From: a bacterium
GTDB lineage: Bacteria; Patescibacteriota; Minisyncoccia; Phycocordibacterales; UBA2100
Reading direction: 5' to 3'
NCBI GenBank assembly: GCA_030648265.1
Contig: JAUSHX010000028.1
Span: 249-64,248, forward strand
Length of the DNA stretch: 64,000 nucleotides
How positions within the stretch are numbered: position 1 is the first letter of the stretch; each line of letters begins with the position of its first letter. Positions 12,677 to 15,658 of this stretch are shown here, piece after piece. The notes beneath the pieces were generated by a model that saw only the letters and a list, made by a program, of their open reading frames with translations, searched no databases and was not told the DNA's origin. A program made the translations under genes and the position numbers.

Positions 12677-13501
12677 ATGCTTGCTGTAATGTACGGTTTG
12701 TTCGGTCTTATAATCGGCAGTTTCGTAAATGTTGTTGTATTGCGCTCCGGAGTGCTTTCACTTTCCGGCAAAAGCGGATGTATGTCGTGCGGCGCAAAAA
12801 TCAAATGGTATGACCTTATTCCGGTTCTTTCTTGGCTTGCACTCCGCGGAAGATGCCGCGCGTGCGGAAGCCGCATTTCCGTGCAATATCCAGCGGTGGA
12901 ACTTGGAACGGGGGTTTCTTTCGCGCTTATCGGCGGGGCCTCTTTGCCGCCTCTCGCGACACTCCTCGGGTTGCTTATATGCTCGGTTCTTATCGCAATT
13001 GCAGTCTATGACCTCCGGCATACCATTATTCCGGATGCGTGGGTGTGGAGCTTCAATGCACTAGCTCTTATCTCTATCTTTCTTCCTGAAAGCAGTCTGA
13101 CTGCCTTTAGCAGTCAGACTGCTTTCGATACCATCGCAGGTCCCATTGTCGCCGCTCCGCTTTTCGTTCTATGGCTCGTGTCACGCGGAAAATGGATTGG
13201 ATTGGGTGATTCCAAACTCGCTCTGGGGATCGGCTGGCTTCTAGGTTCGCTTGCAGGCATTAAAGCGGTACTCTTGGCTTTCATTCTCGGAGCGATAATC
13301 GGGCTTGCGCTGATTTTCTTTTCATCTGCCTTGTGGAATAGGATTGTGAAGCAATTTATCCAGCACCACTCATGGCACATGAGTGGTGCTGGGATTACAA
13401 TGAAGAGTGAAATTCCATTCGGACCGTTTTTAATCGCGGCTTGTCTGTTCGTATGGATATCACAGATATATCACATCCCGATTCCTTTTTTATGGCAGTA
13501 A
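12677..13501 (+). CDS. pilD: prepilin peptidase PilD (A24 family)
   Basis: CMSCGAKI…CRACGSRI zinc-binding tetracysteine and GDSKL-type motifs. A 36-bp palindrome (13089–13124) is inserted in frame. Confidence 0.85.
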   Translation: MLAVMYGLFGLIIGSFVNVVVLRSGVLSLSGKSGCMSCGAKIKWYDLIPVLSWLALRGRCRACGSRISVQYPAVELGTGVSFALIGGASLPPLATLLGLLICSVLIAIAVYDLRHTIIPDAWVWSFNALALISIFLPESSLTAFSSQTAFDTIAGPIVAAPLFVLWLVSRGKWIGLGDSKLALGIGWLLGSLAGIKAVLLAFILGAIIGLALIFFSSALWNRIVKQFIQHHSWHMSGAGITMKSEIPFGPFLIAACLFVWISQIYHIPIPFLWQ

Positions 13502-14343
13502 CCCCTTACCACTTTTCCTATGTCTACATTCTGAACAGTATGCGGTTTCCACGACGAATATATATTGGTTTTACAAACAATCTTAGAAAACGCTTCGGTC
13601 AACACAACGACGGGGAAGTAATCTCGACAAAGCAATATGCACCATGGGAATTACTTTATTATGAAGCGTTTTCTAAGGAGCGATTCGCGCGCCAACGTGA
13701 GTTGCATCTCAAGAATAATGGCAACCCTATGCGCGAGTTGAAAAAACGTATCGGCTTTGATTCCGTTAGGAAAAGTGGTAAGGGGGGCTTCACCCTCATG
13801 GAGCTTATTGTTGTCACTGGTATCATTGTTGTCATCACATCCGTTGTCCTTGCAAACAATAACAGATACGGCGGGTCGGTTCTTCTGCAAAACCTGGCGT
13901 ATGACATCGCACTTTCAATACGGCAGGCGCAAGTATACGGAATATCGGTGCGCGGTCTCGGTGCGAGCAATTTCAGCATTGGATACGGAATGCATTTTGC
14001 AATGAACGACTCTACGCACTATGAGCTTTTTTCGGATGCGGACAACAACGGATTATTCAGTGATGCTTCCGAAAATGTCTCTCCATCGCCGTATGTAATC
14101 GGTCGCAATTATTACATCGCGAAGCTTTGCGCGCCCGCCGGCACAAAATTATCTGACAATTCCTATGAATGTACTTCCGTCACCCAGCTTGATGTGCTGT
14201 ACAAACGCCCCGAACCGGATGCAGCCATTCGCATTCCCGGGACATCATCCTTGCAGGACAGCGCACGCATTATAGTTGAATCCCCGCGCGGGGATATTTT
14301 GAGCATCGTCGTTGATGCAACAGGGCAGATATCGGTACAGTAG
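13492..14343 (+). CDS. minor pseudopilin (FimT/GspH-like) with a complete GIY-YIG (UPF0213-type) nuclease domain in frame before the prepilin cleavage site
   Basis: MAVTPYHFSYVYIL…RIYIGFTNNLRKRFGQHN…PWELLYYE…RELHLKN…SVRKSGKGG|FTLMELIV; one continuous frame. Confidence 0.6.
   Translation: MAVTPYHFSYVYILNSMRFPRRIYIGFTNNLRKRFGQHNDGEVISTKQYAPWELLYYEAFSKERFARQRELHLKNNGNPMRELKKRIGFDSVRKSGKGGFTLMELIVVTGIIVVITSVVLANNNRYGGSVLLQNLAYDIALSIRQAQVYGISVRGLGASNFSIGYGMHFAMNDSTHYELFSDADNNGLFSDASENVSPSPYVIGRNYYIAKLCAPAGTKLSDNSYECTSVTQLDVLYKRPEPDAAIRIPGTSSLQDSARIIVESPRGDILSIVVDATGQISVQ
13502..13785 (+). mobile_element. candidate IR-flanked GIY-YIG element (16-bp perfect inverted repeats ccccttaccacttttc / gaaaagtggtaagggg)
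   Basis: The arms start 1 nt after the pilD stop and end immediately before the GFTLMELIV codons; the same arms flank non-coding hairpin copies E3–E5. Confidence 0.5.
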
Positions 14344-14345
14344 TT

Positions 14346-15020
14346 ATGACCCCTTACCACTTTTTTCATGAACGTGAGCTGAATCTCAAAAACAGCGCTA
14401 ACCTCGTGCAAAAGTCGCAAAGACGCAGTAGTCACGATTCCGTTAGGAAAAGTGGTAAGGGGGGCTTCACCCTCGTTGAATTGATTGTCTCGGTTGGGCT
14501 TTTTGCTATCGTCATGCTTATTTCGGTCGGCGCTCTCCTGGCTCTTACGGGAGCCAATCGTAAAGCGCAGGCGCTCCAATCTGTTATGAACAATCTGAAT
14601 ATCGCTTTAGACGGCATGGTGCGTTCTATCCGCATGGGAAGCAATTTTCATTGCGGGTCGGGCGTATTTAACGGCACAAACAATCTTGACGACTGTCCGA
14701 ACGGCAATACGGTGCTCGTATTTAAACCGTTCGGAGGGAATCTGAATCAGCGGGGTTATCTGTTTGATACCGGCGGTACATACTGCGGCCAAAATCGGAT
14801 TTGCAAATCTGCAGATGGCGGGGCGCATTATGTCGCTCTCACGTCTCCGGAGGTGACGATAGACAGCATGAAATTTTATGTACAAGGGAGTACGCCGGGC
14901 GATACGGAACAACCGAAGGTCGTCATTACCGTAGAGGGCACGGCGGGTGCGGCAAATATGAAAACAAAGACGACGTTCAGCATTCAGGCGACGGCCGTAC
15001 AACGGCTCTTAGACCTATGA
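14346..15020 (+). CDS. minor pseudopilin with 40-aa leader carrying a decayed copy of the IR/GIY-YIG element
   Basis: MTPYHFFHERELNLKN…SVRKSGKGG|FTLVELIV; the alternative GTG start (LVQKSQ…) would give a 20-aa leader. Confidence 0.6.
   Translation: MTPYHFFHERELNLKNSANLVQKSQRRSSHDSVRKSGKGGFTLVELIVSVGLFAIVMLISVGALLALTGANRKAQALQSVMNNLNIALDGMVRSIRMGSNFHCGSGVFNGTNNLDDCPNGNTVLVFKPFGGNLNQRGYLFDTGGTYCGQNRICKSADGGAHYVALTSPEVTIDSMKFYVQGSTPGDTEQPKVVITVEGTAGAANMKTKTTFSIQATAVQRLLDL
14350..14462 (+). repeat. miniature IR element (arms ccccttaccactttttt / gaaaagtggtaagggg) inside the pseudopilin leader-coding region
   Basis: The ends match the GIY-YIG element; the interior retains TPYHF… and …RELNLKN… segments of the GIY-YIG ORF. 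Confidence 0.7.
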
Positions 15021-15658
15021 CCCCTTACCACTTTTTCCATGAACGTGAGCTGAATCTCAAAAACGGTGCTAATCTCATGCAAAAGTCGCAAAGATGCAGT
15101 AGTCACGATTCCATTAGAAAAAGTGGTAAGGGGGGCTTTACTCTTGTGGAAACGCTGGTAGCGATTTCGTTGCTCACAATCGCGATTGTTGCTCCGATGA
15201 CTCTTACGACACAAAGTCTTGGAAGCGCCTATTATGCCCGCGACCAAATAACGGCTTTCCACATCGCGCAGGAGGCGATTGAGTCCGTACGGCATGCGAG
15301 AGACCGTAACGTCCTGAAAAATGCGCTCGGTACAACAGTGAATCTGCTTGATGGTTTTCCCGCTTTGAACGGCGACCCATTTACGGTTGATACGACCAAC
15401 GGTGACGCCATGGAACTGTGCTCCGGTACGTGTCAAGCTTTGAGAAAAAGCAACGAAGGGCTGTATGGCTATAATCCCGCATGGAATAAGACTTATTTTA
15501 CTCGTACCGTCAACGCAACATTCGTACCCGAAAGCAATAATGATGAGGTTAATGTTTCCGTAACAGTTTCCTGGCAGACAGGAAGTTTCAACAGCCGCTC
15601 TTTCACGATTTCGGACAATCTTTTCAGGTGGGTGAACGACGGAAGCGCGTCGCAATAA
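15017..15658 (+). CDS. minor pseudopilin (PilV/GspI-like) with the same IR-derived leader; ATGA overlap with the upstream gene
   Basis: MTPYHFFHERELNLKNGANLMQKSQRCSSHDSIRKSGKGG|FTLVETLVAIS. Confidence 0.6.
   Translation: MTPYHFFHERELNLKNGANLMQKSQRCSSHDSIRKSGKGGFTLVETLVAISLLTIAIVAPMTLTTQSLGSAYYARDQITAFHIAQEAIESVRHARDRNVLKNALGTTVNLLDGFPALNGDPFTVDTTNGDAMELCSGTCQALRKSNEGLYGYNPAWNKTYFTRTVNATFVPESNNDEVNVSVTVSWQTGSFNSRSFTISDNLFRWVNDGSASQ
15021..15133 (+). repeat. miniature IR element, third in-frame copy
   Basis: ccccttaccacttttt … gaaaaagtggtaagggg. Confidence 0.7.

Follow-up and report, generated by a model that had tools for sequence, protein, structure and literature searches.

A hairpin-bracketed GIY-YIG element in the leader of a Patescibacterial pseudopilin and its probable removal by the prepilin peptidase

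Introduction

How a minor pseudopilin gene can begin with a nuclease is the question raised by one locus in a 64,000-nucleotide stretch of contig JAUSHX010000028.1 (positions 249 to 64,248; the window, whose own numbering is used below) from a bacterium of the Patescibacteriota, or Candidate Phyla Radiation (CPR). In the open frame of the first of four minor pseudopilin genes behind pilD, a complete GIY-YIG nuclease domain, bracketed by inverted repeats, stands ahead of the prepilin cleavage motif. The initial annotation of this DNA offered two alternatives, namely that (a) a mobile element with terminal inverted repeats had come to lie repeatedly on pseudopilin leaders or (b) these pseudopilins carry a nuclease pro-peptide that the prepilin peptidase PilD removes. 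The computational analysis described here favours a combination of the two over a choice between them. Thus, the explanation that we prefer, with a probability of about 60%, is that a hairpin-bracketed GIY-YIG element, belonging to a family spread across CPR bacteria, resides in the pseudopilin leader and is removed by PilD.

Results

Structure of the pseudopilin 1 leader

The full open frame of pseudopilin 1 (13453–14343 (+)) runs from a native start (ATG 13453 or ATG 13492) through a left arm, the GIY-YIG domain, a right arm and a Gly|Phe site into a mature part that resembles GspH/FimU (NCBIfam GspH and IV_pilin_GFxxxE matches). The arms, described initially as perfect inverted repeats of 16 bp, were perfect as described but longer, each comprising 19 nt (13502–13520 (+) and 13767–13785 (+)) with 100% complementarity, and they were predicted to pair when the transcript was folded (z = −5.6). 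The placement of the arms was likewise as first reported. Thus, the left arm, CCCCTTACCACTTTTCCTA, which encodes T-P-Y-H-F-S-Y, lies at the end of pilD, the stop codon of which (TAA, 13499–13501) abuts it directly, and the right arm, TAGGAAAAGTGGTAAGGGG, which encodes (R)K-S-G-K-G, a canonical basic end of a prepilin leader, is followed by the predicted PilD cleavage site, Gly(−1)|Phe(+1) (13786–13791 (+)), of an N_methyl/TIGR02532 motif. No stop codon occurs between the GIY-YIG domain and the sequence ...VRKSGKGG|FTLMELIV of the GspH-like pseudopilin, and both ends of this single frame were recognised in the product of 13492–14343, where PF01541 was matched at residues 9–80 (E = 2e-14, 54 bits, cut-off 22.6) and the N_methyl motif at residues 96–120.

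The complete GIY-YIG domain claimed for the leader was therefore recovered by the profile search. Within it (13516–13731 (+)) the conserved Tyr, Tyr, Arg, His and Glu of the family are intact, and an alignment of 33 fused sequences (mean column identity 57%) showed columns Y10, Y12, G26, R34, H38 and N39 to be invariant and E58 nearly so. Membership in the GIY-YIG superfamily is indicated by these residues and by the beta-beta-alpha-alpha-beta-alpha fold of an AlphaFold2 model (predicted local distance difference test score, pLDDT, 81), in which GIY-YIG topology was predicted with confidence for residues 9–93, with the pilin helix beyond a linker; this linker, located at the cleavage site (residues 93–100), had a pLDDT below 50 and is predicted to be disordered. 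Foldseek matches of the model were to Slx1, BH0048 and HIGLE. The more specific label of UPF0213 type, given initially to this domain, did not gain support, since BH0048, a UPF0213 protein, matched in sequence with E = 0.6 and in fold with a template modelling score of 0.46–0.53, similar to that for Slx1. A perfect 15-nt inverted repeat (13582–13596/13663–13677; codons LRKRF/EAFSK), 16 nt long in the related locus L001, was also noted in the GIY-YIG coding sequence and was ruled out as a general feature of the element, there being no enrichment across relatives.

Site states and recent transfer

Hundreds of pseudopilin homologues were found in Kaiserbacteria-like Patescibacteria, and the search for sites with and without the insert that the initial annotation had proposed revealed three states of the orthologous site among relatives (L and P numbers are our handles for these). 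Thus, the site lacked the hairpin in L127 (leader MALTHVRRRTTEHSRA|FTLIE), contained the hairpin only in L128 (MVLTNVRRGN-TPYHFS-LKSDKG|FTLIE) and L005, and contained hairpin and GIY-YIG domain in the window, L001/P0001, P0002 and L003/P0011. In all three classes of leader, a start codon lies upstream of the site and overlaps the end of pilD in another frame; in the window the last ~50 nt of pilD are shared in this manner with the native pseudopilin 1 start, and the same overlap occurs in L127, L128 and L005. The in-frame ATG 13453 was aligned to the codon at which element-free orthologues begin and, because it is orthologous to the native start of these relatives, the leader of pseudopilin 1 may be 112 residues long instead of 99.

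Between the window and the syntenic locus L001, the GIY block was 96% identical in DNA sequence, with a synonymous divergence (dS) of 0.10, whereas pilT, pilC, pilD, the mature pseudopilins and ligA were 65–80% identical, with dS values of 0.9–3. In a pairwise DNA alignment, the block that we regard as transferred, including short co-converted flanks (13482–13806 (+)), was 94–98% identical to L001 as opposed to 50–80% for the sequence on either side, and its edges were sharp, at ~13482 and ~13806, roughly 20 nt beyond either arm. These values of dS indicate that the host genes had long since diverged when the element reached this site or was overwritten at it. Like the site of a homing-type element, the site is filled in some relatives and empty in others, and the element is far less diverged than its flanks. 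Thus, the GIY-YIG unit, consisting of the arms and the nuclease gene, is a mobile element that moved far later than the flanking genes diverged.

Deletion copies were found at the head of the next two genes, which, as the initial annotation had recognised, carry the same arms around decayed GIY-YIG interiors and are tightly coupled to their neighbours by a 2-nt spacer and an ATGA overlap. Pseudopilin 2 (14346–15020 (+)) and the PilV/GspI-like pseudopilin 3 (15017–15658 (+)) each begin with ATG and the left arm and end a 40-residue leader with the right arm and GGC|TTC/TTT. Both leaders are non-autonomous deletion copies, located at 14349–14463 (arms 14350–14364/14448–14462; fold z = −3.3) and 15020–15134 (arms 15021–15037/15117–15133; fold z = −4.3), and are 91–93% identical to each other. 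DNA alignment showed each copy (~115 nt) to retain the two arms together with the final ~95 nt of the GIY element, after an internal deletion of ~170 nt, in agreement with tblastn matches of GIY residues 65–98 to leaders 2 and 3 (E = 1.8e-9 and 9.6e-9, respectively). Autonomous and non-autonomous copies thus have terminal inverted repeats in common, in the manner of miniature inverted-repeat transposable elements (MITEs).

Other paralogues are occupied in other genomes. Intact GIY-YIG domains were found on the third pseudopilin (P0121, P0122), and in L001 the fourth pseudopilin carries a decayed copy while pseudopilins 2 and 3 carry the arms with yet another interior, this pair being 98% identical. 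The youth of the element relative to its flanks, the empty, hairpin-only and filled sites, the deletion copies and the occupancy of other paralogues together bear out reading (a). In L001, an RAYT-like gene (10979–11790; weak match to Pfam Y1_Tnp, 230 aa) was also noted after ligA, with its own palindrome, ACTTGGAGGTGAAACCTCCAAGT, present around it four times; the gene is missing from that position in the window.

Distribution of the element among CPR bacteria

An exhaustive HMMER search with residues 1–99 returned 4762 relatives, as opposed to 7 proteins from a word-indexed search with the GIY domain alone. Among the best 149 representatives of clusters formed at 50% identity, 84 carried an N-terminal GIY-YIG domain in frame with a prepilin motif; the junction was typically ...ELKKRIGL..KSGAG|FTLIE and the mature parts were very different, unrelated types of pilin. 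Free-standing relatives of 81–100 residues also exist. Scanning of metagenomes yielded 517 loci; 80 of these were retained, and arms were counted in 69 non-redundant loci. Complementary arms of at least 14 nt bracketed the gene in 47 of the 69, compared with 1 of 69 after the upstream flank was shuffled. The consensus of these arms, ACCCnGCACC(AC)TTTT / AAAA(GT)GGTGCnGGGT, varied across loci while pairing was preserved within each. Read in frame, the right arm encodes K-S-G-(A/K)-G. All three frames of the left arm are open and encode T(P/Q)(Y/H)HF, P(L/S)TTF and PAPL(L/F), which explains the recurrent leader peptides.

A prepilin lay downstream in 31 of the 67 loci with sufficient downstream DNA, and 20 of these 31 pilin-adjacent copies were in frame and stop-free, compared with a chance expectation of at most one third. 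Pilin-associated copies usually have a left-flank copy of the K-G-F-T codons, such that GG(N)TTTAC(C) occurs on both sides (e.g., CTGGGTTTACCC twice in L148), and exact flanking repeats of at least 7 nt were found at 8 of 19 pilin loci versus 2 of 22 non-pilin loci. Members of the same clade, with bracketing arms, also occur inside 16S ribosomal RNA (rRNA) genes (L170, L171 and L180), at a position judged from the flanks GCAAGTCGA|...|GGCGGACGG to be helix 6, and inside genes for 23S rRNA (L168, L172 and L196) and RNase P RNA (L161 and L199). RNase P RNA appears not to have been reported before as a host of GIY-YIG genes; the RNase P RNA gene of the window (47571–47935) is uninterrupted. The names of the sources (Levy-, Collier-, Davies- and Pacebacteria, Sungiibacteriota and Peregrinibacteria) indicate that the GIY-hairpin family is CPR-wide. 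That the family brackets GIY-YIG genes across CPR bacteria, including those in rRNA and RNase P RNA genes, had escaped the initial annotation, as had the membership of the arms in a wider hairpin family, copies of which also occur by themselves in non-coding gaps of the operon. A scan of a genome collection with a 14-mer arm was set aside as dominated by chance single matches, a few paired hairpins in Parcubacteria being informative.

Probable translation of the leader and its proposed removal by PilD

With no stop codon in the way, a ribosome that starts at the GIY ATG must run into the pilin, which, as its native start precedes the insert, can be made by read-through only. The nuclease would therefore be translated, in the cytoplasm, as an N-terminal leader of ~100 residues. 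Protein-level selection on the domain was evident from L140 (3001–4400), in which each of two adjoining pilin genes has an intact GIY-YIG leader. The nuclease domains of these copies are 75% identical, their pilin parts are unrelated and their arms differ. Proportions of synonymous (pS) and nonsynonymous (pN) differences between the two were 0.65 and 0.14, respectively, which indicates purifying selection on the domain when fused.

The leader of a prepilin faces the cytoplasm, where PilD cuts. The pseudopilins of the window have the attributes of PilD substrates, namely G(−1)|F(+1)..E(+5) followed by a hydrophobic helix (N_methyl/TIGR02532; GspH and PilV/GspI similarities), and the cognate A24 peptidase gene, pilD (12677–13501 (+); Pfam A24_N_bact, E = 1.5e-28; Peptidase_A24, E = 4.7e-10), adjoins them. 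Recurrent fusion (84 of 149), purifying selection and the upstream start thus lend indirect support to reading (b), according to which the nuclease would be a pro-peptide removed by PilD.

Another account of the same frame is unlikely. According to it, no fusion protein is made; translation begins at internal starts (ATG 13729, GTG ~14406 and ATG ~15077) to give ordinary 20-residue leaders, the GIY frame is silent or yields a separate product, the open frame is a by-product, and the arms act in RNA, for example as a site for RNase III or other processing or as a hairpin for translational coupling. In its favour, NCBI calls a product of 204 aa (P0003) that starts at ATG 13729 (Met80) and has a 20-aa leader, each of the three leaders has an in-frame start codon at the equivalent position, the stems are predicted to be highly stable and 11 of the 31 pilin-adjacent relatives have a GIY stop and a separate pilin start (e.g., MKSGAG|FTLIE). 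Moreover, RNase III is the enzyme that classically excises rRNA insertions flanked by long stems (PMC11270868). In opposition to this account, ribosomes that start at the GIY ATG meet no stop before they enter the pilin, a Met between the domain and G|F is missing from many fused relatives, and the starts of hairpin-only alleles lie solely upstream of the left arm. The excess of in-frame, stop-free copies (20 of 31 versus at most one third by chance) is likewise contrary to a silent frame, and purifying selection indicates that the fused domains are translated.

Several observations weigh against the reading that we prefer. The NCBI start and the in-frame internal starts of leaders 2 and 3 are among these, as are the 11 loci with separate pilin starts, according to which fusion is not obligatory, and the hairpin, which would block the translation start region in the folded messenger RNA (mRNA). 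Known prepilin leaders are short and basic, of about 6–30 residues, whereas those of pseudopilins 1, 2 and 3, counted from the first ATG, comprise 99–112, 40 and 40 residues and the first is a folded leader of ~100; internal starts would reduce the leaders to 20 residues. With respect to mobility, the contrast in dS comes from one genome pair, the window and L001, and the left copy of the G-F-T repeat is degenerate in the window (GCAGTAACC / ATGACC). Further, Pfam found no recognised transposase (DDE, Y1, serine or other) in the element, which has the GIY-YIG domain alone, and neither Pfam nor the AlphaFold2 model gave a separate DNA-binding domain, only the ~90-aa catalytic domain preceding the pilin. 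The initial term "homing-type" is therefore partly apt, fitting the polymorphic site but not the domain content.

The fused L140 copies also bear on the possibility that the fusion has been domesticated. According to this explanation, which seems improbable, an Ssn-like nuclease specific for single-stranded or structured DNA is made stoichiometrically with minor pilins for DNA uptake, is released by PilD at the inner membrane face and cuts incoming DNA at hairpins, in order to restrict or steer transformation or to scavenge nucleotides. Domestication would account for the wide occurrence of the fusion, the purifying selection on the domain and the retention of two intact copies, 75% identical, at one locus. 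It also accords with the concentration of hairpins at the pilus locus, which parallels the clusters of NTS repeats and the influence that Ssn has on transformation in Neisseria (PMC11893778), and with the view that CPR bacteria take in DNA through pili and ComEC (PMC12455944). In opposition, the fusion is patchy among close relatives, decayed copies lie in the same operon, the element arrived recently by horizontal transfer and its clade also occurs in rRNA and RNase P RNA genes, which have no link to pili. Patchiness, decay, recent arrival and RNA-gene hosts are typical of selfish elements, and the domesticated and selfish readings are compatible.

The hairpin family and the pilus locus of the window

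Within the window, the 15-mer arm occurred 14 times at up to 3 mismatches, compared with 1.46 times expected, and none of 100 shuffles reached 14. Arm sequences varied among copies (CCCCTTACCACTTT, CCCCCCACCACTTT and CCCAGCACCTTT) while complementarity was kept within every pair, and RNA folds of the hairpin elements were far more stable than those of shuffled sequences, with z values of −3.3 to −7.4. Nine of ten hairpins fall in the type IV pilus locus, which occupies 18% of the window.

This locus, delineated from the list of open reading frames and from Pfam and NCBIfam matches, contains genes for a PilO-like protein (4950), pilB (6096), a response regulator (7814), pilT (8375), pilC (9628), three major-type pilins (11046, 11582 and 12111, the last with the native leader MKSKG|FTLIE for comparison), pilD and four minor pseudopilins (13492, 14346, 15017 and 15666), followed by ligA. 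Upstream of the PilO-like gene is an imperfect hairpin element, TCCCAGCCCCACTTTTGC / GCAAAAGTGGAGTGGGA (4753–4905 (+)), and upstream of pilT an element of the ACCCAGCACCTTT type with a 75-nt interior (8236–8334 (+)). A family-B element of 118 nt (10838–10955 (+); arms AACCCCTTACCACTTTGA; fold z = −7.2), which is non-coding and has an interior unrelated to GIY, lies between pilC and the first pilin gene, at a position where L001 has a short hairpin only. A second family-B element, between pilT and pilC (9469–9584 (+); fold z = −7.4), has the same interior and co-varied, perfect 22-nt arms (ACCCCCCACCACTTTAGTATCC). Solo hairpins were found between the third pilin gene and pilD (12612–12660 (+); arms CCCCACCACTTTTGCC, 10-nt loop; fold z = −7.2) and between pseudopilin 4 and ligA (16278–16318 (+); ACCCAGCACCTTTGTTTC / GAAACGAAGGTGCTGGGT). 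The sole member of the family outside the pilus locus is a zero-loop palindrome, ACCCAGCACCTTTCG|CGAAAGGTGCTGGGT, between ilvD and ilvC (37828–37857 (+)). Remnants of GIY were sought and ruled out in the interiors of the elements at 9469, 10838, 4753 and 8236 and in L001 pseudopilin leaders 2 and 3, where similarity was limited to the arms.

The presence of these hairpins in nearly every intercistronic gap, the co-variation of their arms and the occurrence after some of them of a second conserved hairpin just before a start codon would suit host regulatory structures, such as terminators, attenuators or mRNA stabilisers, with the GIY gene an incidental passenger in a loop. This idea appears very improbable. 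The hairpins lack T-tracts, were not called as intrinsic terminators or promoters in the window, where counts of such calls were near shuffle levels, and gave no match to Rfam families. Further, the arm family is tied to GIY genes (47 of 69 loci) in many lineages and contexts, including rRNA genes, and arms and gene move together in the 96%-identical block.

Other repeats were noted in and around the locus. A second conserved cassette, GTAAGAnTTTCTAAGCTCGCTCCGCTCnCTAACAAAnTCTAAC, lies directly before an ATG at 4906–4950, 8335–8377, 9585–9630, 16319–16364 and 37858–37904, always 3' of an ACCC..GGGT hairpin; its small stem co-varies (GATTTT/AAAATC, GAGTTT/AAACTC and GAATTT/AAATTC), and it may be a promoter or a 5'-leader module. 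The pilD frame contains two in-frame hairpins. The first (13360–13392; CCAGCACCACTCATG/CATGAGTGGTGCTGG), which encodes QHHS..SGAG, has arms of the leader-element type, and its position corresponds in each of the six PilD homologues under comparison to K(S/A)G(A/T/K)G-(Y/F/I)TMKSE, which resembles the end of a prepilin leader. The second (13088–13126), which encodes ESSLTAFSSQTAF, falls where the PilD alignment varies in length and is missing from the five other homologues. The leader of pseudopilin 4 (MKKFTVYSLQFTEWTRRVFRCQLSTVNCQPRERG|FTLLL; 15666–15767) is composed of heptamer repeats, AGTTTAC three times and CTGTCAA four times, which together make up an imperfect inverted repeat; an element like this is also present upstream of lepA (52255–52335), and orthologues of pseudopilin 4 elsewhere have leaders made from yet other palindromic repeats (e.g., P0009, P0012, P0014 and P0037). 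Perfect palindromes of unrelated sequence, with arms of 15–22 nt and loops of 0–2 nt, were noted at 25868–25903, 25916–25953, 61857–61894, 62670–62713 and 63338–63371.

Discussion

The preferred explanation, that of a mobile element lodged in a leader that PilD removes, suggests how such an insert could be borne. With the start codon upstream of the site, the pseudopilin could be expressed only if the insert kept the frame and contained no stop. Cleavage at G|F by the neighbouring PilD would then allow the pilin to mature normally and would release a nuclease of ~11 kDa. In this way the host would rid itself of the parasite after translation, in a manner akin to the tolerance, through RNA processing, of its relatives in hairpin loops of rRNA and RNase P RNA, and the element would persist wherever it is discarded or tolerated, that is, in RNA hairpin loops, in intergenic gaps and in a leader removed by PilD.

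Ideas on the movement of the element are more speculative. Analogy with Ssn and Slx1 suggests that the nuclease may recognise the arm hairpin when this is extruded or single-stranded; the nearest folds are those of the structure-specific Slx1 nucleases. Recombination or repair could account for spread, and the DNA concerned may have entered through the same pilus. The duplicated G-F-T codons, which lie in the best-conserved DNA of all pilin genes, may point to a staggered cut or to a junction made by recombination. We suggest tentatively, at somewhat less than even odds, that such elements represent a class that is in effect spliced post-translationally by a host peptidase and that the nuclease freed by PilD is active, acting on hairpins of its own family and possibly on imported single-stranded DNA.

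If the preferred explanation is correct, the cleavable leader joins introns, inteins and rRNA expansion loops as a refuge for selfish DNA, many oddly long, repeat-encoded pilin leaders of CPR bacteria are accounted for, and prepilin peptidases are predicted to process precursors with a folded leader of 100 residues. For annotation, the locus is a reminder that gene callers disagree on the start of these pilin genes. The many pairs of nuclease and hairpin, which might have defined single-strand specificities, could be of use in biotechnology.

Comparison with known systems

Homing genes and inteins resemble the present element in their presence/absence polymorphism, in being younger than their flanks, in having short co-converted flanks and in persisting through harmless removal from the host product, which for inteins also takes place at the protein level. 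The present element differs in having no intron, self-splicing domain or separate DNA-binding domain (compare the I-TevI/Seg type), and its removal would fall to a host enzyme, a peptidase whose own role lies elsewhere. Homing genes, moreover, are not characterised by inverted arms or MITE-like derivatives. A further comparison is with the palindromic families, which include the Rickettsia palindromic elements, repetitive extragenic palindromes (REP) and bacterial interspersed mosaic elements (BIME) with their REP-associated tyrosine transposases (RAYT), and MITEs. Likenesses to these are the short units in intergenic gaps, occasionally in frame, and the non-autonomous copies that retain the ends of a master copy. 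In contrast, the enzyme here is a GIY-YIG nuclease instead of a Y1 or DDE transposase, and insertion is concentrated in a cleavable leader instead of a mature protein.

The motif HN.G..STK..PW.L.YYE is one that we take to be like that of the Ssn group (cd10448). Small GIY-YIG genes flanked by hairpins have already been described in the form of the Ssn nucleases with their NTS/SRM hairpin repeats (Chenal et al., 2025, PMC11893778), and in Neisseria Ssn cuts single-stranded DNA beside its hairpin and affects natural transformation (PMC11893778). Both systems have a small (~90-aa) GIY-YIG domain without a DNA-binding domain, hairpin-forming repeats around the gene in an "IS-like" architecture, and many solo repeats clustered near pilus or surface genes, Ssn being linked functionally to DNA uptake. 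Here too the repeats that flank the gene are found elsewhere, in nine further elements of the window. However, the arms here pair across the gene whereas each flank of an Ssn gene forms its own hairpin, and the arm consensus, ACCCnGCACC..TTTT, falls outside the published SRM pattern. That pattern, HGTCWYN(0-2)YYVSBRHN(0-5)WNVSBRGN(0-2)RNCYNB, had a single, unrelated match in the 64 kb (26605), compared with 0.3 expected. Further, the frame in the window comprises 283 (or 296) residues fused to a pseudopilin as opposed to a single domain of ~90–100, the hosts are CPR bacteria, of which PMC11893778 makes no mention, and mobility, which for Ssn was no more than a hypothesis, is demonstrated here. 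No solved Ssn structure was found in the PDB, and the element is at most a putative member of Ssn proper.

GIY-YIG genes have also been reported in non-intron insertions in rRNA genes of CPR bacteria (Tsurumaki et al., 2024, PMC11270868, and earlier CPR genome work cited therein). The same GIY clade is involved, in 16S and 23S rRNA, and the insertions are neither group I nor group II introns and lie at stem-loops. In contrast with the present findings, that report mentions neither bracketing inverted arms nor hosts that are RNase P RNA or protein-coding genes and regards the GIY-YIG insertions as lying "outside the context of homing" (PMC11270868), whereas the element described here has a prepilin leader as host and was evidently transferred recently. 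Pilins, leader fusions and bracketing arms paired across the gene are mentioned in neither PMC11893778 nor PMC11270868, and no description of a GIY-YIG–prepilin fusion was found in the literature searched (GIY-YIG with pilin, Patescibacteria and SsnA, with most subscription papers outside its scope). In-frame residence in a prepilin leader appears to be new, and the present family ties the Ssn type of hairpin nuclease both to elements that are demonstrably mobile and to the puzzling GIY-YIG insertions in rRNA genes of CPR bacteria.

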